Made by a program: the position numbers and the translations under genes. From the sequence record OR352948.1: a stretch of 64,000 nt of DNA; one strand, given 5' to 3'. Of this stretch, positions 3,841 through 48,226 are shown in pieces; position 1 is the first letter of the stretch; each line of letters starts with the position of its first letter. Source of the DNA: Escherichia phage AV118. The notes under the pieces are model-generated. The model was given only the letters and a program-made list of their open reading frames with translations, made no database searches and had not been told where the DNA came from.

Positions 3841-5510
3841 TGATGAGTGATATCGCCACCGATTGGACGATAGGAAACACCAGTTTCTTTATCAGTTAGT
3901 ACCCATTTACCAGGATTTTTTGTAATCAGAGTAGCCGTTACAGGTTCTGCTACGTCATAACTAATAGAGCCGTCTTGAAGTACACGGCCCATATTACGTA
4001 ATTGCTTAGTCAGAAGTTCCATACCTTTATAATATGCGGCTACCGCTTTAAGTGGATTATTCTTGAAATAACCACCTAATGCAATCCAGATAATTGCCAC
4101 TGCCAAATGATGATACTCGTTAAACGAACTCATCTTTCCATATTTGTAAACTAATGGATTGATGTTAATAGTCACATTACAAGTTGTTTCATCAATAGTA
4201 AACTGTCCCCAGGTCGGATTAGCATTGAATTCATCATAACCTGAAACAGCATAAAGCACTTTAGCTTCATCATACAATTTTGGCCCGTAAATCTTGGTTT
4301 CGCCAAAATATCCACGAGGGTCGATAAACTTGACTTCGCCGTTATCAGTAATCATAGTATTACTGAAGTTCGGGTCACCATGAATAACAGAGTACTGTCC
4401 CTGAGAACGGTTATGATAACGAATAAGGTGTTCTAAAGCTTGTTTCAGCATTGGCTTCAGACGTCCAATCTTAGTGTAGTTCACATGTGTGATTTTACCA
4501 AATGAATCAATCAATGGTTGAATGCTTTCACAACGATCAATAACTTTCGTATAGAATTCTTTAGTGAAATCACGACGAACAGTTTCAGGACTTACAAAAT
4601 AAGTGTCTGTGCTGAATTTCAGTGCATCTAAAATTGCATCAACAATTTGTGGACGAGCAAGACTTGATTTGGATTTAATATATTCAAATGCCGGCTTACC
4701 TTTAATGCGTTCCATTTCAAAGTTATTTTCATTAACAGAAACTAACTGAGGAACTGAATCTGATTTCACTTTCAAATACCACGAAATCTCATCTTTCTGA
4801 AGAGCTCGACCCTGTTCGGTTAATGCGAATTTAGTTACAGTTTCTTCACCAATTTCAACTGCATTAAAACTACGATTAAGTTCACGAACTTCATGAGCCT
4901 TTTCAAGTTTAGGCATATCACCAAGGTCGATGATATTCATAAGCTCTGATTTATTGAATGCGCCACTGTAAAGGAATTCTACGAAATCACGTCCTTTGCA
5001 GTATTCATGAATTTCCTCATCAGTAGAACCCATATAGAATTCCCAGTCTTTGAACTGATAAATTCCTACAACATTACCACCTGTTGAACCTACGTTAGTG
5101 ATATTTTCACCGTCGAAATTATATCGACATTCGTCACCCTTAACATAGATTGCATTAACATTCCAAGACCATGAACCAAAATCGGGAATAATATCACACC
5201 AGTTAACAATTACGTTATGGCCGTCTAAATCTTTGTGTAATTTAGCAAGAGCATAAGCAGAACCATACGCTTCATCAACTGTACGAATAGTCACATTGAA
5301 CCCTTCTTGCTCACAATAAGCTCGAACAGTTTCAGCAAATTTTGAATGAACTACTACAATAATTTCATCTGCGCCAAGGTCAGAATAAATTGTATACAAA
5401 TTGCTCAGAATAGTGTCTTGTTTATAGTTAACAAGCACCTTAGGAATATGATGCGTTATTGGATACAAACGAGTTGCCAGTCCAGCACCAAGAATAACAG
5501 CTTTTTTCAT
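3825..5510 (-). CDS. bifunctional sugar-1-phosphate nucleotidyltransferase / sugar kinase (APH-like kinase domain)
   Basis: 561 aa; N-term ILGAGLATRLYPIT..PK (GxGTRLxPxT NTase signature); C-term VIHGDPNFSN...FIDPRG (Brenner kinase motif); SD GAGGA 7 nt upstream. Confidence 0.8.
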   Translation of the reverse strand: MKKAVILGAGLATRLYPITHHIPKVLVNYKQDTILSNLYTIYSDLGADEIIVVVHSKFAETVRAYCEQEGFNVTIRTVDEAYGSAYALAKLHKDLDGHNVIVNWCDIIPDFGSWSWNVNAIYVKGDECRYNFDGENITNVGSTGGNVVGIYQFKDWEFYMGSTDEEIHEYCKGRDFVEFLYSGAFNKSELMNIIDLGDMPKLEKAHEVRELNRSFNAVEIGEETVTKFALTEQGRALQKDEISWYLKVKSDSVPQLVSVNENNFEMERIKGKPAFEYIKSKSSLARPQIVDAILDALKFSTDTYFVSPETVRRDFTKEFYTKVIDRCESIQPLIDSFGKITHVNYTKIGRLKPMLKQALEHLIRYHNRSQGQYSVIHGDPNFSNTMITDNGEVKFIDPRGYFGETKIYGPKLYDEAKVLYAVSGYDEFNANPTWGQFTIDETTCNVTININPLVYKYGKMSSFNEYHHLAVAIIWIALGGYFKNNPLKAVAAYYKGMELLTKQLRNMGRVLQDGSISYDVAEPVTATLITKNPGKWVLTDKETGVSYRPIGGDITHQWERI

Positions 5511-41909: not shown

Positions 41910-42368
41910 TTATAGGAGGGTAGTGAGCACCTTATATAATGATTTGCCCATTACATATTCCCATTGAGAAGGTTTAATTAAAGCGAATGCATCAAATTCA
42001 GGAATCTGACGTCCGTCTGGGAATGTATGATAGGAATTACAAACACTGTTTCTGAATTGCTCGTGCTCTACAGGGATGGTATATAGGAACAGATGAATAT
42101 TCTTATTATCTGAGTAATGATGTTCACCTAGGTCTTTCAGGAAGGCAGGGTCATATTGTGTAAACCCAGTTTCTTCTTCGCATTCACGAATAGCGGCTTC
42201 AATAGGAGATTCGCCAGGTTCGACATGGCCTTTAGGAATATCCCACCGATGAGCTAAAGAACCTTTAGGACGAGAACCAGTTACACGCCCCATGAATAAT
42301 TCTTTATCTTCGGTAAGGAAAATAATACCGGCTGATAGTTCTTTCACTTTATTTTTCTTACTCATCAT
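41910..42368 (-). CDS. nudE: Nudix hydrolase
   Basis: 152 aa; Nudix box GHVEPGESPIEAAIRECEEETG. Confidence 0.9.
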   Translation of the reverse strand: MMSKKNKVKELSAGIIFLTEDKELFMGRVTGSRPKGSLAHRWDIPKGHVEPGESPIEAAIRECEEETGFTQYDPAFLKDLGEHHYSDNKNIHLFLYTIPVEHEQFRNSVCNSYHTFPDGRQIPEFDAFALIKPSQWEYVMGKSLYKVLTTLL

Positions 42369-42609
42369 CTCGGTCCCATGATTTGGCCATTAATTCGGAC
42401 ATAAATTCTTCAATGCGCGTTTCTTTAGATGGACTTTCACTATTAGAGACCGCAAGTTTGTAATCTGCAATAGGACAGAACATATCAAGGTCCATATTAA
42501 GGTCGTCTTTGATTTTTTCTTCTGACACATCTTTATCGTATGTGTACAGATAACTATCACATGATTCTGATTTAATGTAAATTGCTATACTCATCTCAAA
42601 TTCCTGCAT
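42358..42609 (-). CDS. hypothetical acidic protein
   Basis: 83-aa ORF. Confidence 0.45.
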   Translation of the reverse strand: MQEFEMSIAIYIKSESCDSYLYTYDKDVSEEKIKDDLNMDLDMFCPIADYKLAVSNSESPSKETRIEEFMSELMAKSWDRDDE

Positions 42610-43070
42610 TCGGTAATAAAACGTTCAACTTCATTATTCTTGGCTTTTATCTTGTCTTTATGTTCTTGTAAACTACTTTTAATAAGATTAATAATGATAG
42701 CGACAGTGCCGCCGCCAATGATGCCACCAATAATACTTACGATAGTAGATGCTAATAAGATAGCAATAATATCAACAAAACCGAAAGAACTCACCTTAGT
42801 ACTAAAAAACCATATAGACGGTACAAATATAATCCATCCTGTTATCCATTGGCACTTATTGAAAAACTTTTCAAGCTCAGCTTGAGTTGTTCGTATTACT
42901 TCATCGATAGGTTGATATCCGTTAATGTATCTGTTCACGATAATACCTGCTGACTGGTCGATTTTAAATTCTTGGCAAATATGTTTCACTAAGTATGATG
43001 GACATCCTGTCCAATCTACTGAATAGTATGAAATACCTTCATTGCCGTCGTCTATATTATTGTTAATCAT
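42591..43070 (-). CDS. membrane protein with C-terminal ERFITECR motif (FIKECR family)
   Basis: 159 aa; hydrophobic core segments; C-terminus ...EVERFITECRNLR. Confidence 0.6.
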   Translation of the reverse strand: MINNNIDDGNEGISYYSVDWTGCPSYLVKHICQEFKIDQSAGIIVNRYINGYQPIDEVIRTTQAELEKFFNKCQWITGWIIFVPSIWFFSTKVSSFGFVDIIAILLASTIVSIIGGIIGGGTVAIIINLIKSSLQEHKDKIKAKNNEVERFITECRNLR

Positions 43071-43756
43071 TACCAGCCTTCCATAGGGAATTCCAGATAA
43101 ACTTGAGCATTGACACGAATTTCATTGGTAATCTTTTTAACTCGGTCTGTATTACGAGATACACGTCCGAACCAACGCCATCCGTTACTAATTGCACGAG
43201 AACCAGTGTGCCATGTTTGCCAATCAAATTGAAGAAGAGTACGGTCTGGAGCTTCCCATTTCTCTAGTTCGCCTTTTTCGATTTTTTCGAGGACTTCTTT
43301 GTGCCACTGGCGATAGATAAGTTTGCCATCAGGAATCTGACTGAACTCTGCAGTTCCTGTTGCAAAATGAGTAGGACACACATCAGCGTTAACAAGACCA
43401 AGAATATGTTCAGACAAATAGCGAGGATTGTCATAGTCAGGTTGTCCTGCAGTAATAAAGTGTTGACCAACTGGAATATCAGGGCGTGGAACATCGTCAT
43501 GGTGATATCCAGGAATAGCAGGGTACCAGCCAGGCATCAGCATGTGGACTCGTGAATCAAATACAACATCCGAGTCTTTCCAATCGTCAGGGAGATTTTG
43601 GATAAAGCTACGAGTAATTGGACCGCCATTATCAAAAGCAAAATTCAAATCGCAATTAAAGAACATAGGCTCGTTTTTAATCTGGCCATTTTTAATCGCA
43701 TGAGCAAAACCACCTACTGCACGAGCTTGACTATTAAACACTTTAGAACTATTCAT
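43070..43756 (-). CDS. hypothetical protein
   Basis: 228-aa ORF, His/Asp-rich central region, SD GAGGAAA. Confidence 0.55.
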   Translation of the reverse strand: MNSSKVFNSQARAVGGFAHAIKNGQIKNEPMFFNCDLNFAFDNGGPITRSFIQNLPDDWKDSDVVFDSRVHMLMPGWYPAIPGYHHDDVPRPDIPVGQHFITAGQPDYDNPRYLSEHILGLVNADVCPTHFATGTAEFSQIPDGKLIYRQWHKEVLEKIEKGELEKWEAPDRTLLQFDWQTWHTGSRAISNGWRWFGRVSRNTDRVKKITNEIRVNAQVYLEFPMEGW

Positions 43757-43757
43757 A

Positions 43758-44063
43758 TTATTTTCCTCGGCATTCTTTAATGAAATTTTCTAGATTGGTA
43801 GATTCAATAGCTTTTTTACGAGCTTCTGCATGTTCTTCTTCGGACAATTTACATTTATAATTGACCCAGACATTATGGTCGAAACTAGTCGTGGCATATA
43901 ATAACAATGCTCCAACGAATAGCAAAAACGGTGATAAGAATACAAAACCAGGAACACCATCCATACTGTAAGCCTTTTGTAATACTGCAACAGAAAGAGC
44001 TGCGTAAAAAGGTGATGCAAATATTGTTAAAAGACCAATTCGGTTGGTTTCGCCTAATTTCAT
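43758..44063 (-). CDS. membrane protein with C-terminal ENFIKECR motif (FIKECR family)
   Basis: 101 aa; two hydrophobic helices; C-terminus ...LENFIKECRGK. Confidence 0.6.
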   Translation of the reverse strand: MKLGETNRIGLLTIFASPFYAALSVAVLQKAYSMDGVPGFVFLSPFLLFVGALLLYATTSFDHNVWVNYKCKLSEEEHAEARKKAIESTNLENFIKECRGK

Positions 44064-44091
44064 AATATTCTCCTCATGTTTTAATAGGACT

Positions 44092-44121
44092 ACTATAACA
44101 TAATCCTATAATTATGTAAAC
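44092..44121 (-). promoter_or_regulatory. T4-early-type promoter in palindromic element
   Basis: GTTTAC + TATAGT inside GATAGGACTA-type inverted repeat. Confidence 0.45.
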
Positions 44122-44133
44122 AGTTTTGCGAAA

Positions 44134-45090
44134 TTATTTGAAAGGTTTTACCATATGAAAATTTTCTTTAAACCGTTTGATGTAATCATTTTTGCCGAGC
44201 TTATGATACATAGCCACTACTTCATAATAGTTCTCGTATGCGTACTCACGGAACCAACCGGAGGTGATGCTTGTGCAGACTTTTTCTAATGCCATCATGA
44301 AACTGGCTTCAGGGTTAATTTTAAAGTCATTAGGAATTTGAGAACGTTCTAATGCTAGTACACATGATTCTTCATATACACCAGCCAGTTTAATCATTTC
44401 GGGTAACGATTCGAACTTCTCGCGTGAGGTCATGACTTCAGAACCGTCTTTCATATAAAATGTATACGCTGGACGGTCTGTTAGTGCAATGGCTTCATGA
44501 ATAGTATCATGGTCATATGTATAGATGTCATCTTTAAAGAACGCACTTTTAGAAGTGTCAAGAACTGGGTGAGCATAGTTCAAGGTTTCTTTCTGGCGTT
44601 TCAGCATAATTTCAGTAAGTTCATCGTTCAGTGTAACACCTTTACCACGAAGATACTGAATATGGTTCATAGTCTTTAAAAAGAATGGATTATTTTTCTT
44701 GAAACGATGAGACATCTTAATTGCAAGACCTATCTCAGGAGTTGCCCAGTAAAACCCGTTCAAACGGTCTTTAGTCAAATTTTTCTTGGCGTATTTTAAA
44801 AGGTCATAAGAAGACGTGAAATCTTCAGGAGTGAGTTCACCGACTAATTCACGGACATTAGTGATTGCCGGAACAATATATGCTTCAAAATGAGTTTCGC
44901 GTCCATTATGGAAGCATTTGAAAACTTGGACATCAGGGTTATCTTGGTGAACATATACACCCATCATTTGATTTTTGAATGCATTCCAAGAACCTTGGTC
45001 CGCAATAAAGTCCCAATCACTATTTTTGATAGCGCTAGAATCAATAAGACCGTGATAGTGAAGTGCACGAGAACCAATAACTAACATCAT
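44134..45090 (-). CDS. hypothetical protein (possible divergent nucleotidyltransferase-like N-terminus)
   Basis: 318 aa; N-term GSRALHYHGL...SDWDF loosely resembles GS...DxD. Confidence 0.5.
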   Translation of the reverse strand: MMLVIGSRALHYHGLIDSSAIKNSDWDFIADQGSWNAFKNQMMGVYVHQDNPDVQVFKCFHNGRETHFEAYIVPAITNVRELVGELTPEDFTSSYDLLKYAKKNLTKDRLNGFYWATPEIGLAIKMSHRFKKNNPFFLKTMNHIQYLRGKGVTLNDELTEIMLKRQKETLNYAHPVLDTSKSAFFKDDIYTYDHDTIHEAIALTDRPAYTFYMKDGSEVMTSREKFESLPEMIKLAGVYEESCVLALERSQIPNDFKINPEASFMMALEKVCTSITSGWFREYAYENYYEVVAMYHKLGKNDYIKRFKENFHMVKPFK

Positions 45091-45115
45091 AATAATTTCC
45101 TCGAATTTAGATTAC

Positions 45116-45367
45116 TTAAATTTCGCGACATGCGATATCATATTCATCCCAGAGGTCATCATGTGAAGCCTCTACCAATGGAACGATTGTACCGTTTATG
45201 TCTTCATTATAAGGGCAAATTGTACAGTGCGCATCTTCGAATCGGATGCCTTTGTGTTCAGATTTTTTATAACGCATATCGAATATCTTTGCAAACTTTT
45301 CACGAGTAATGGTTTTAGCAACCACTTTGGTTCCAATACTTTCATAATAAATCATCGTGGACTCCAT
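45116..45367 (-). CDS. hypothetical protein (C-terminus ...DIACREI)
   Basis: 83-aa ORF. Confidence 0.5.
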   Translation of the reverse strand: MESTMIYYESIGTKVVAKTITREKFAKIFDMRYKKSEHKGIRFEDAHCTICPYNEDINGTIVPLVEASHDDLWDEYDIACREI

Positions 45368-45383
45368 TTAATTTGATAGGACT

Positions 45384-45413
45384 ACTATAACATAGCCCTA
45401 TCTTGTTGTAAAC
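45384..45413 (-). promoter_or_regulatory. T4-early-type promoter in palindromic element
   Basis: GTTTAC + TATAGT inside GATAGGACTA-type inverted repeat. Confidence 0.45.
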
Positions 45414-45417
45414 TGTT

Positions 45418-45615
45418 TTAGCAAGAATAACTAGATGATACCCAGCCTTGAACAGTGATACTATTGTGGGATAATGAGATCGCGTCCTGGAGATTCAGAC
45501 CTGCGTTATCTTCAATCCATAATGTAACTTCTTCGCGTTCTTCTGTTGCAATTTGGAACAGGTTTTCCAGGGCAGCTACTGCCGTACGTACAGCACAATC
45601 TAATTCACGAGACAT
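45418..45615 (-). CDS. small protein ending ...GWVSSSYSC (WVSSSxxC family)
   Basis: 65-aa ORF; last tandem paralog. Confidence 0.55.
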   Translation of the reverse strand: MSRELDCAVRTAVAALENLFQIATEEREEVTLWIEDNAGLNLQDAISLSHNSITVQGWVSSSYSC

Positions 45616-45624
45616 ATCGTTTCC

Positions 45625-45897
45625 TTAGCAAGTGTGAGAAGATGCGACCCAACCACCAGTTTCGAGGCTCAGGTTGTAGTCGTATTGGTAAACGTCAGCC
45701 CATTCAGCATAGCCGTTTTTTGTACAACGTTCAAGATCGGCTTTAAGATGTCCGGGTGAATGATAGGTTCCACCCATACCATAAGCTGGGTACAAGTCGA
45801 ATGTTGTGTTTTGTTTATCAGCAATTTCTTTGGCAGCCTCAATAGCTGCATAGATTTTTGCTACAGCTTCAGCCAGTTCGGTTTGTTCTTTAGACAT
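45625..45897 (-). CDS. small protein ending ...GWVASSHTC (WVSSSxxC family)
   Basis: 90-aa ORF; SD TAAGGAA overlaps upstream stop. Confidence 0.55.
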   Translation of the reverse strand: MSKEQTELAEAVAKIYAAIEAAKEIADKQNTTFDLYPAYGMGGTYHSPGHLKADLERCTKNGYAEWADVYQYDYNLSLETGGWVASSHTC

Positions 45898-45906
45898 AAT
45901 GATTCC

Positions 45907-46212
45907 TTAGCACAACGCAGAAGACGAAACCCAAGCACCTTCAGTAATAACGTAACCATTACCTTCACGCTTAACATCGCCACCGTTATTTTCAATTTCA
46001 TTTTTCATCCACTGGGATACGATTTCACCCTTAGGATAATAAGTACGACCGCTACCATAATCACCTACAGAAAATGATACGGCATATTGGTCTGCGATCT
46101 TTGTTGCTTCTTCTTCGATACGTTCAGATTGATTCAGAAGTTTATAAATTGCATCTGAAGCAGATTTGGCATCATTAAACTCTGGTACTTTAATTTCAAT
46201 AATCTTACTCAT
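45907..46212 (-). CDS. small protein ending ...AWVSSSALC (WVSSSxxC family)
   Basis: 101-aa ORF; ATGA coupling with upstream membrane-protein gene. Confidence 0.55.
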   Translation of the reverse strand: MSKIIEIKVPEFNDAKSASDAIYKLLNQSERIEEEATKIADQYAVSFSVGDYGSGRTYYPKGEIVSQWMKNEIENNGGDVKREGNGYVITEGAWVSSSALC

Positions 46213-46568
46213 TTTCTACATTCCTTAATAAAGTTTTCGATTGTTTCATTTTCACGTCTAGCTAGGAGTTCATTATAACTAATCATTTGAGAAGCGTAAA
46301 TCTTTTTATTTTTCTTGTTATGGTAAATAAAGTCATAGTAAAAATAGACTACAGTACAAAATGATGCGATGGATGCAAAGGCTTGGGTATACCGTAAGTC
46401 CTGCCATTGGTCTGTGAATCCGCCAGTGTTCCCTATAAATCCTAACACAACGCCGTCAATAAGAAATCCAACTAATCCAAAGGCAAATCCCATGCCAATA
46501 CTCATAATAAAAATTAGAATGTTCTCACCAAGAGAAGGCCATACGGTTAAGAGTTGAGGCTTTTGCAT
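46209..46568 (-). CDS. membrane protein with C-terminal ENFIKECR motif (FIKECR family)
   Basis: 119 aa; hydrophobic N-terminal half; C-terminus ...IENFIKECRK. Confidence 0.6.
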   Translation of the reverse strand: MQKPQLLTVWPSLGENILIFIMSIGMGFAFGLVGFLIDGVVLGFIGNTGGFTDQWQDLRYTQAFASIASFCTVVYFYYDFIYHNKKNKKIYASQMISYNELLARRENETIENFIKECRK

Positions 46569-46909
46569 CTTATTTCCTTAACGAATTCCATAGCTTCTTC
46601 ATATTCATACTTTTTAACAACTTCATCATACTGAGCTTGGGCTTTTGCGCACTGAACTTTCCATTCACGAACTCGAGCTCTGTGATGACGGCCTTGGTAC
46701 CAATATCCCACTCAGTTAATAGGCATTAATAAAAATGGCACAATAAACGACCCGGCTATAATAAGTAAAAACACTGCATCAGACGATATAACTTTATTGG
46801 AATCTAAAATAGCTCCTATAATCATAAAGATTAAAAATGCTAAAGCTAAAATAGGGCCAAATAATACTTCGTTTGGGATTAATTTACGTTTGTATTCGTA
46901 TGCCCAGGC
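46569..46909 (-). pseudogene. putative decayed FIKECR-family membrane-protein gene
   Basis: No ATG; hydrophobic reading frame interrupted by TGA, followed in another frame by ...EEAMEFVKEIR tail; no ORF-track call. Confidence 0.3.
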
Positions 46910-47533
46910 TTAATTGGCATGTACAGGGTTGGCTTTGACATATTCTCTACATTCCATAATAAATTGCTCAAGGATTAAATTGTTAGTGAAATTAGGACTA
47001 ACAACCATAGTTTCATAAAGCGCATCAATAGCACTTAAAGCATCAACTCTTTTAAGCAAAGGCTTGCCTTCATACATAGTTTCAGAATCGACGATTAAAG
47101 TGAAGTAGTATTTTTTATTATCGACTAGAACTTCTGTATCGATATAAAACATATTAGACCTCAGAAGCTTATCTCTAAAACCATAATAATCTTTAGAGCG
47201 TTCGCTGATATATTCCCATTCAGTGTTTAAACAACAAACAGACCATGTAGGAGCAACGAAATCGGTGAATCTAATATCATGGTCTGCAACTAGTTTAGCA
47301 ATAGCTCCGATATCATGAATCATAATACCTGGGGCTAATAAAGATTTTCTGCTATGGCTAGCCGTTTTCTCAGTAGTCTCATAAGAAGACGACCAGTACC
47401 ATTTACGTCCAGTTGCAACATATCGTAATGAATCAACTAAAGACGTAGGTGGATTTACCTTATCTCGGAACTCTTCGAACATTGAGTCAATATCATTATT
47501 TTGGTTTCGCATGTTAACTCCTTTATTATCCAA
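46910..47533 (-). CDS. hypothetical protein carrying EQFIMECR motif near C-terminus
   Basis: 207-aa ORF, not obviously membrane-embedded. Confidence 0.55.
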   Translation of the reverse strand: MDNKGVNMRNQNNDIDSMFEEFRDKVNPPTSLVDSLRYVATGRKWYWSSSYETTEKTASHSRKSLLAPGIMIHDIGAIAKLVADHDIRFTDFVAPTWSVCCLNTEWEYISERSKDYYGFRDKLLRSNMFYIDTEVLVDNKKYYFTLIVDSETMYEGKPLLKRVDALSAIDALYETMVVSPNFTNNLILEQFIMECREYVKANPVHAN

Positions 47534-47554
47534 AAGGAGGACCGGAGTCCTCCG
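47531..47554 (-). terminator. intrinsic terminator hairpin + U-run
   Basis: GGAGGAC-CGGA-GTCCTCC followed by T4 on minus strand. Confidence 0.5.
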
Positions 47555-47561
47555 TATTATT

Positions 47562-48155
47562 TTATTTCAAAGAGTTAATATATTCTTGTACATCAGCAGA
47601 AGTGGTTTCGACACCAGCTGGAGTGCCATTGAACGTTTCAACACGAGTCAGAGTGTCTTCGATATCAACCTTAGTCAGTGCAGCGATTTCAATTACATCA
47701 TCGGCCGTAGAGATACCAAGGGCATTAGCTGCTCGAGTTTCACGAATGTATTCGAGTTTGATTGCCAGATTCTGACGAGCATCATCAAGTTCAACCACCT
47801 TACGAGCAATTTCAATTCGCATAGCGGCATACCCGTCAGCTTTTGTATTAAGTTGTTCGGCAGTTCGACGATACAGAAGACCAAGCTTAGCATGCATGGT
47901 AACATCTTGTCCTTCAGCCAAGAGCTTACGAATTTCACGTTCCTTAGAAGCGGCTTGCTTGTTCTTTTCATTAACAAGTTCGCGAATACGTTTTTCTTCA
48001 TTAATAGATTTAACAGAAGCCGTTTTTAGTTCTTTGATTTGGGTAATCAACTTATCTGCAGCTGCGTTATACTGTTCTTCGACAGTCAGATTTTTAGCCA
48101 TAGCAGTACCCAGTTTAGTGCGGATGAATTCAACAAGTTTTTTCAGTGTGTTCAT
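47562..48155 (-). CDS. coiled-coil protein (weak PspA/IM30-like resemblance)
   Basis: 197 aa from ATG 48155; long heptad-rich helices; follows duplicated early promoter. Confidence 0.5.
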
Positions 48156-48196: not shown

Positions 48197-48226
48197 ATTA
48201 TACTCTGCTCTCAAGAGTTTGTAAAT
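48197..48226 (-). promoter_or_regulatory. sigma70/T4-early-type promoter TTTACA-N17-TATAAT
   Basis: 49-bp element identical to 19506..19554. Confidence 0.6.

Follow-up and report, generated by a model that had tools for sequence, protein, structure and literature searches.

In a 64,000-nucleotide stretch of the genome of Escherichia phage AV118 (sequence record OR352948.1, the whole of which is called the window here), a cluster of genes lying on one strand between nudE and e.6 encodes proteins that share a short C-terminal motif, Phi-x-x-F-I/V-x-E-C-R, in which Phi is a hydrophobic residue. The motif is a real feature of these genes, and selection acts on the peptide and not on the bases that encode it. 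By sequence and synteny, the carriers are orthologues of e.2, RB69ORF133c, e.3, e.4 and e.5, which places them in the T4/RB69 e.2-e.5 set. The original prediction, which was made by a model from the letters of the window and drew attention to the motif, had treated them as unnamed open reading frames (ORFs); that they are annotated T4/RB69 genes was an omission. We propose, with a probability of roughly 0.45, that a cytoplasmic amphipathic helix, of which the motif forms the conserved end, acts as a common protein-protein interaction tag.

A motif conserved as a peptide

When the window was scanned in six frames with the strict pattern E.F[IVLM].E[CIV]R, four matches were found, all on the minus strand, in frame and 1-14 residues before the stop codon. 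By chance, 0.027 matches per window would be expected from 300 first-order Markov surrogates, or 0.02 when the residues are shuffled within the real ORFs. The four matches are precisely the four ORFs for which an E-x-F-I-x-E-C-R tail had been described, and the fifth, decayed copy that had been proposed is also real, being e.4 with the variant AMEFVKEIRC close to its end (...AMEFVKEIRCKSLNS). A position matrix derived from 20 instances, taken from five genera, gives 25-31 bits to the five copies in the window, including the e.4 variant, and the highest score among the remaining 21,004 coding 11-mers (21,009 in all) is 10.1 bits.

The codons of the motif also double as Shine-Dalgarno (SD) sequences, as the original prediction had noticed: AAGGA in e.3, AGGA in e.2 and GAGGA in ORF133c are located within or just after the motif and before the next start codon. 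It had further held that the motif is kept where it is not at the gene end. This is correct for e.5, in which the motif is not terminal, but even there it is still 4 nt upstream of the true start of e.4 at 46941.

To separate the peptide from the underlying DNA, codon use was surveyed in 29 instances from nine genera. The Cys was encoded by TGC in 10 and TGT in 13 instances, and the Arg by AGA (11), AGG (3), CGA (3), CGC (1), CGG (1) and CGT (7), while the Phe, Ile, Lys and Glu of the motif were likewise encoded by both or several codons. In the window, ENFIKECR is shared by e.3 and ORF133c, whose eight core codons differ at five synonymous sites but at no non-synonymous one. The spacing between the motif and the following start codon is also variable (0-25 nt). 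As neither the choice of synonymous codons nor the spacing to the stop codon and the following start is fixed, selection acts on the peptide and not on the bases; the SD overlap is real but secondary. An overlapping nucleotide signal alone therefore fails to explain the motif, since the use of synonymous codons shows that the amino acids are kept. Gene conversion among the copies was also considered and is unsupported, because orthologue-specific variants persist, such as T at position +2 in e.2 (T4 and Mosigvirus) and K at +5 in e.3 (Dhakavirus and Gaprivervirus). This persistence points to independent purifying selection on each copy.

The possibility that the ORFs are not expressed can be set aside too. 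In the supplement of a time-resolved transcriptome and proteome study of T4, both an RNA class and a protein class are given for every one of e.2-e.5, indicating that the T4 orthologues are transcribed and detected as proteins (PMC9697503). All of e.2-e.6 belong to the early RNA class, with the proteins of e.4 and e.5 classed as early, those of e.2 and e.6 as middle and that of e.3 as late (PMC9697503).

Within the motif, conservation is confined to one side of a helix. Among 28 non-redundant tails, the information content was 4.2 bits for F (position 0), 2.8 for I/V (+1), 4.5 for C (+4) and 4.0 for R (+5), and position -3 was hydrophobic in 89%. On a helical wheel, positions 0, +1, +4, +5 and -3 fall at 0, 100, 40, 140 and 60 degrees, forming one face, and the positions on the opposite face, at 200-340 degrees, do not exceed 1.8 bits.

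The proteins that carry the motif

In the membrane carriers, a tail of 29-50 residues comes after two hydrophobic segments. There are 8-11 Lys and Arg residues in the tails versus 0-1 in the loop between the membrane segments, so that the tail is predicted by the positive-inside rule to be cytoplasmic. ORF133c and e.3 consist of the two segments and tails of 42 and 38 residues, respectively, and in e.2 a soluble N-terminal part comes before the two segments and the basic tail. No hydrophobic segment was found in e.5 or in the carriers of 92-113 residues from Kanagawavirus, Marfavirus, Moonvirus and Karamvirus. The earlier description of three proteins with transmembrane N-terminal halves thus fits ORF133c, e.3 and e.4, but not e.2, in which the segments are in the C-terminal half, nor e.5, which has none.

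For e.5, two AlphaFold2 models were built from alignments of 15 and 23 sequences. Their overall quality was poor, with predicted local distance difference test (pLDDT) scores of 58.7 and 60.8, but both placed the motif (LEQFIMECREYVKA) in the last predicted helix, residues 179-194. Foldseek searches with the e.5 model gave no informative match in the PDB (best E = 0.045, template modelling score below 0.25), and in BFVD only uncharacterised relatives of e.5 were found.

The motif could not be assigned to a family by the original prediction, and this still holds, as no Pfam, NCBIfam, PHROG or PDB entry describes it. In Pfam-A there was no match for e.2, e.3, e.4 or e.5, and ORF133c matched only below the curated cut-off; precomputed tables assign e.5 the Pfam accession PF26876. 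Nothing was above the curated cut-offs of NCBIfam for the carriers, and no informative family turned up in Pfam-A, NCBIfam or PHROGs when the neighbouring genes were included. The profile search that had been suggested for the tail was carried out against the PDB with the 28 tails and gave no more than noise, such as RecA repeats with 4-5 bits per stretch. The label 'sulfurtransferase', which is attached to e.3 and e.4 in several GenBank records (JK42, F25, ECML-363 and others), has no support in Pfam, NCBIfam or PHROGs. In the searchable literature, the main text of papers does not mention T4 e.3, e.4, e.5 or e.6, which appear in a supplement table only (PMC9697503).

When the matrix was applied to coding strands, 1-6 carriers per genome were found in 13 genera, among them Mosigvirus (5), Tequatrovirus (T4; 4), Dhakavirus (3), Gaprivervirus (4), Kanagawavirus (4), Marfavirus (4-5), Moonvirus (4), Winklervirus (4) and Karamvirus (6); the unclassified Klebsiella phage Roth21 has 2. 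ORF133c was found in Mosigvirus only. In 45 instances counted, the motif was 0-24 residues from the C-terminus, or 0-14 when RB43 is excepted. The complete T4 genome has matches above 15 bits only in e.2-e.5, at 67.5-68.7 kb and within 1.3 kb of each other, and the next match (14.0 bits) is in a non-coding frame.

In the Aeromonas phages and RB43, the sole carrier is the protein encoded directly after e.6, with tails such as VELFVDYCRR (Biquartavirus), SFINYCI and SFVDYCV (Ceceduovirus) and LEKFIHSCKK (RB43). The motif is degenerate in Muldoonvirus (A-I-H-E-A-R). At position +3, the genera infecting E. coli have Glu or Asp, and Cys-bearing carriers from phages of Klebsiella, Enterobacter, Citrobacter and Serratia have G, H, Y, Q, M, N or L. 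Proteins of the e.4 type retain Glu at +3 and have I, V, S or M in place of the Cys. In several of them, a conserved E-W-K-x-Q-C precedes the motif by about 28 residues, and in e.4 of T4 and RB69 a Cys is present one residue past the motif Arg (KEIRC, KESRC).

The e.5 type is the most widespread carrier and is probably ancestral; the membrane carriers would then be later additions in phages of enterobacteria. Homologue searches with e.5 reached only e.5 proteins of the T4, RB69, Klebsiella-phage and Merlin types, and a search of 1.84 billion proteins with an e.5 profile gave only 34 clusters. All 29 of the remote homologues that were read retain F-[IV]-x-x-C-[RK] close to the C-terminus. In an alignment of e.5 from eight genera, the only invariant columns were M1, N96, F184, C188 and R189. 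Three of these are in the motif, which is therefore the most conserved part of e.5.

Interpretations of the shared tail

If the motif is a docking tag, its conserved face (Phi at -3, F at 0, I/V at +1, C at +4 and R at +5) would be common to two otherwise unrelated kinds of carrier, namely two-pass inner-membrane proteins (e.2, ORF133c, e.3 and e.4) and soluble proteins (e.5 and a protein of roughly 100 residues in other genera). By way of this surface, the carriers would all converge on one binding site, on the cytoplasmic side of the inner membrane; this site could be a shared partner or the carriers' own tails, resulting in hetero-oligomerisation. A common interaction surface is suggested because conservation is one-sided, the bodies are unrelated, the genes are strictly clustered and each copy is under independent purifying selection. 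The most obvious candidate partner would be e.6, because its gene is directly upstream of the e.5-type gene in 14 of 14 genera examined, although this is synteny and not contact. Both that the motif binds and what it binds are what we infer from these patterns. The biological role would presumably be in host takeover or related to defence, as for other variable early genes, and the near-invariant Cys may reflect chemistry involving a metal or redox reactions.

Several observations weigh against a docking tag. No binding partner has been shown or predicted, and the low-confidence e.5 models leave the motif helix either exposed or packed in the e.5 fold. A near-invariant Cys is unusual in a pure docking helix and hints at metal, redox or covalent chemistry; against such chemistry, the Cys is replaced in the e.4 type and is missing from the A-I-x-E-A-R of Muldoonvirus. 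The carriers are also individually dispensable in nature: AV118 has a dead e.4, the e.2 gene is broken or missing in T4, AV116 and T2, and phiC120 has lost e.3 by deletion. The Aeromonas phages and RB43 have e.6 without the membrane carriers, indicating that e.6 does not need them. Finally, the T4 carriers differ in protein class (e.4 and e.5 early, e.2 middle and e.3 late), unlike the components of a single stoichiometric complex (PMC9697503).

The alternative that survives best, although we consider it unlikely, is plain descent. The carriers could be ancient tandem paralogues with bodies that are no longer recognisably related, the tail being kept for an intramolecular or membrane-proximal structural reason, such as folding, insertion or an amphipathic helix at the surface, and not for a common partner. 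The carrier genes are in a tandem cluster, and the membrane carriers are alike in build, with two membrane segments and a basic tail. When six carrier groups were compared with hhalign, only the last 9-22 residues aligned (E from 2e-7 to 0.38), with the exception of e.3 and e.4, which aligned over 43 residues; e.4 gave no significant alignment with e.2, e.5 or the small proteins. A weak match was found between ORF133c and the e.2 PHROG (residues 19-99, E = 0.0013), of a kind that membrane segments can inflate. As the membrane carriers share their build and ORF133c weakly matches the e.2 PHROG, their common descent is possible, but it is not demonstrable from these comparisons. Some variants, such as NWIKGCRK in Marfavirus, resemble membrane-surface helices; however, such helices do not need an invariant Cys and Arg with an acidic residue. 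The motif is also carried by soluble proteins of other size and predicted fold (e.5 and the proteins of 92-113 residues), and nothing beyond the tail aligns between families. The term 'paralogous gene family' used in the original prediction is therefore not upheld, as each carrier is in its own PHROG. What the comparisons show instead is one C-terminal module shared by bodies that are either unrelated or too diverged to be recognised as related.

A turnover or timing tag is a less probable explanation. The tail could be recognised by a host or phage protease (of the FtsH, Lon or ClpXP type) or by another machine, giving the carriers a common fate. C-terminal tags are a common way of addressing proteins to such proteases, and here the position is strictly C-terminal, the tail is predicted to be cytoplasmic and the genes are early. 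However, the T4 carriers do not share one protein class, and 4-24 residues follow the motif in e.5-type proteins, leaving no free C-terminus for recognition. To our knowledge, the tail does not resemble any known degron.

A relationship to the capsid targeting sequence (CTS), the N-terminal MK(T/S)(Y/F)xEF(I/L)xE tag, is very improbable. On this view, the motif would be a version of the CTS displaced to the C-terminus, serving either for binding to the prohead core or as a substrate of the prohead protease, with cleavage after I-x-E. The likeness is nevertheless worth noting. The CTS of IPI, IPII, IPIII and their relatives is a helical tag of about 10 residues, found in the same variable region, and is the sole conserved element on diverse internal proteins (PMC3012670). 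The cores are partly similar (E-F-I-x-E), with x-F-I-x-E common to both consensus sequences, and five CTS-bearing genes flank the AV118 cluster. The best non-family match to the matrix in the window was a CTS (TFNEFISESSG), a second (TYQEFITEARV) ranked 12th overall, and RFITECR of e.2 can be compared with EFITEAR of the IPII-like protein of the same phage. However, this best match reaches only 10 bits versus 25-31 for the family members, and no CTS in T4 reaches 7 bits. The CTS has no Cys, and an Arg is present in some copies only. None of the AV118-type motifs is located right after the start Met as the CTS is, since 45 of 45 instances are C-terminal, mostly on membrane proteins. The CTS acts late, in prohead assembly, whereas the T4 orthologues of the carriers are early genes; by protein class, e.4 and e.5 are early and the internal proteins late (PMC9697503).

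A second known system is similar in principle. T4 DNA polymerase, gp33, gp55 and RNase H have C-terminal peptides of the L-D-F-L type for the gp45 sliding clamp. Here also one short hydrophobic C-terminal peptide docks several unrelated phage proteins to one hub. However, the clamp peptides have no Cys-Arg and their carriers are soluble replication and transcription proteins, whereas the AV118 motif is Phi-x-x-F-[IV] followed by x-x-C-R. In the scan of the T4 genome with the motif matrix, none of the known gp45 clamp partners scored.

Least credible of all is a DNA-level signal (an SD sequence, translational coupling, a regulatory site or a recombination linker like the promoter/stem-loop (PeSL) cassettes) with the peptide as a by-product. 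The next start codon does follow within 25 nt of the motif in every case, the motif codons contribute AGGA-type SD sequences in two or three window genes, and PeSL cassettes are known at gene borders in such regions (PMC2839356, PMC4122927). The PeSLs resemble the AV118 motif in being repeated, conserved border elements in T4-type variable regions that are tied to gene gain and loss, but they are non-coding and conserved as DNA (promoter hexamers and a stem-loop), whereas the AV118 motif is coding and conserved as amino acids only. As a sole explanation, the signal is rejected by codon usage: third positions are free and the Arg is drawn from both codon families while the amino acids are constant. 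The distances to the stop and the next start are not constant either, no exact DNA match between window paralogues is as long as 10 nt, and the motif is kept in the 29 remote e.5 homologues.

Returning to the docking interpretation, a more far-reaching form of it can be envisaged, which we regard as doubtful. The C-terminal Phi-x-x-F-[IV]-x-E-C-R helix could be a second 'plug-in' address system beside the CTS, recruiting interchangeable early effectors with rapid turnover, both membrane-bound and soluble, to one hub on the cytoplasmic side of the inner membrane. This hub could be e.6, the Cys could give a shared metal site or a redox-sensitive link, and new effectors would join just by acquiring the tag.

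Genome setting, gene decay and implications

The AV118 window is from a Mosigvirus (RB69-like, T4-type). Positions 42300-47700 are 95.8-97.6% identical at the DNA level to Mosigvirus genomes such as RB69, AV116 and mogra, and in RB69 (95.8%) the gene order is unchanged. The window carriers matched PHROGs with E from 1e-49 to 1e-95, and tblastn matches link e.3 and e.5 of the window to T4-type e.3 and e.5. All of the carrier PHROGs (2203, 9798, 2330, 2604, 2607, 32323 and 27909) are separate and every one is labelled unknown function; the intact e.4 protein of RB69 and T4 is phrog_2604. The window genes are thus orthologues of catalogued families (PHROGs 2203, 9798, 2330, 2604 and 2607, and PF26876 for e.5), but the catalogue entries for e.2-e.5 are kept apart and the shared tail is recorded in none of them. 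The coordinates of the carriers and of the other features are given in Table 1.

Table 1. Positions of the motif carriers, neighbouring genes, predicted signals and compared loci (window coordinates unless a locus is named)
Feature	Position	Strand	Details
e.2 orthologue	42591..43070	-	159 aa; motif core 42603-42626; ends ...EVERFITECRNLR; phrog_2203
ORF132c	43070-43756	-	228 aa; C-terminus ...RVSRNTDRVKKITNEIRVNAQVYLEFPMEGW
RB69ORF133c orthologue	43758..44063	-	101 aa; motif core 43767-43790; ends ...LENFIKECRGK; phrog_9798
Sigma-70/T4-early-like promoter match	44092..44120	-	TTTACA-17-TATAGT with TG, upstream of ORF133c; consensus match only
ORF134c	44134-45090	-	318 aa; Pfam DUF7277 + DUF7275
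Similar promoter match	45384-45412	-	before ORF135c; consensus match only
RB69ORF136c-139c type, three genes	45418-45615, 45625-45897, 45907-46212	-	small acidic proteins
e.3 orthologue	46209..46568	-	119 aa; motif core 46215-46238; ends ...IENFIKECRK; phrog_2330
e.4 orthologue, decayed	46547..46941	-	variant motif 46565-46597, Ile for Cys; ends ...AMEFVKEIRCKSLNS
e.5 orthologue	46910..47512	-	200 aa from RB69 ATG (207 aa from upstream TTG at 47533); motif core 46946-46969; ORF ends ...LEQFIMECREYVKANPVHAN
Terminator-like GC-rich hairpin, then T-run	47536..47553	-	between e.6 and e.5
e.6 orthologue	47562..48155	-	197 aa, highly conserved
Similar promoter match	48197-48225	-	before e.6; consensus match only
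Five internal-protein-like genes with CTS start	starts 40306, 41390, 49414, 51679, 52052	-	both sides of cluster
T4 broken e.2 motif ORF	locus L003 3492-3652		
e.4-type loci compared	L001 6763-7137; L003 (T4) 4302-4694; L006 4604-4963; L009 10222-10581		

Other conserved genes are present in the cluster. ORF132c, with a nearly invariant C-terminus, and ORF134c are interspersed among the carriers in most of the enterobacterial-phage genera examined. A second family with a conserved C-terminus is formed by the three small acidic proteins of the RB69ORF136c-139c type, which end in G-x-W-V-(S/A)-S-S-x-x-C with the Cys as the final residue. Proteins of this type were found in 2-5 copies per genome in nine genera, some ending in W-x-P/S-S-S-C, but not in T4, Roth21, the Aeromonas phages or RB43, and they had no Pfam match above the cut-off.

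The protein e.6 is far better conserved than its neighbours, with 88% identity to T4 and 31-55% to the Aeromonas phages and RB43; the identity to the T4 type is 35-39% for e.3 and 47% for e.5. There was no Pfam or PDB match for e.6. A PspA-like identity was considered and dropped as it had no sequence support, and the label 'host specificity protein', which e.6 has in some GenBank records, has no support in the libraries searched.

The original prediction had called the family hypervariable and under turnover. Turnover is borne out by independent lesions and losses of e.4, e.2 and e.3, but hypervariability is not, as Mosigvirus orthologues are mostly more than 90% identical to each other and change is fast only between genera. 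In the window, e.4 has a 1-nt deletion at about 46907/8, shortly after the start, and, compared with RB69 and AV116, an in-frame change of TGG to TGA at 46712-46714; the gene is intact in RB69, mogra, phiC120 and AV116. It also has a patch in the second membrane segment that is strongly diverged from RB69 and AV116, which suggests a recombination patch. The e.2 gene of the T4 reference is frameshifted, with the motif (NLNNFITECRKLK) in a 53-codon ORF within the annotated nudE-e.2 spacer. In AV116, e.2 is split by a frameshift (locus L023 292-760), and in T2 (locus L024) there is no e.2 and the nudE coding sequence is annotated across gene e. In phiC120, e.3 is reduced to its last 33 codons (locus L004 4991-5090). 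Some of the single-base lesions are in homopolymer runs and could be sequencing errors, but the TGA in the window e.4 is a substitution.

To summarise, this short C-terminal motif shared by diverse accessory proteins is described in no library or searchable paper, and the closest known principles are the CTS, the clamp peptides and the PeSLs. T4 and RB69 are very well studied, yet e.2-e.6 are still 'hypothetical', and the shared, selected tail is a first functional handle on them. Under the docking interpretation, four or five early proteins that are still uncharacterised would be expected to work at a single site, with F, I/V, C and R as the residues to target by mutation; the tail could serve as a bait of about 15 residues for the partner. 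If the tail is indeed a recruitment signal, it would explain how effectors are swapped in the variable regions of T4-type phages while remaining tied to a fixed machine, and it would provide a second targeting tag for engineering, beside the CTS.

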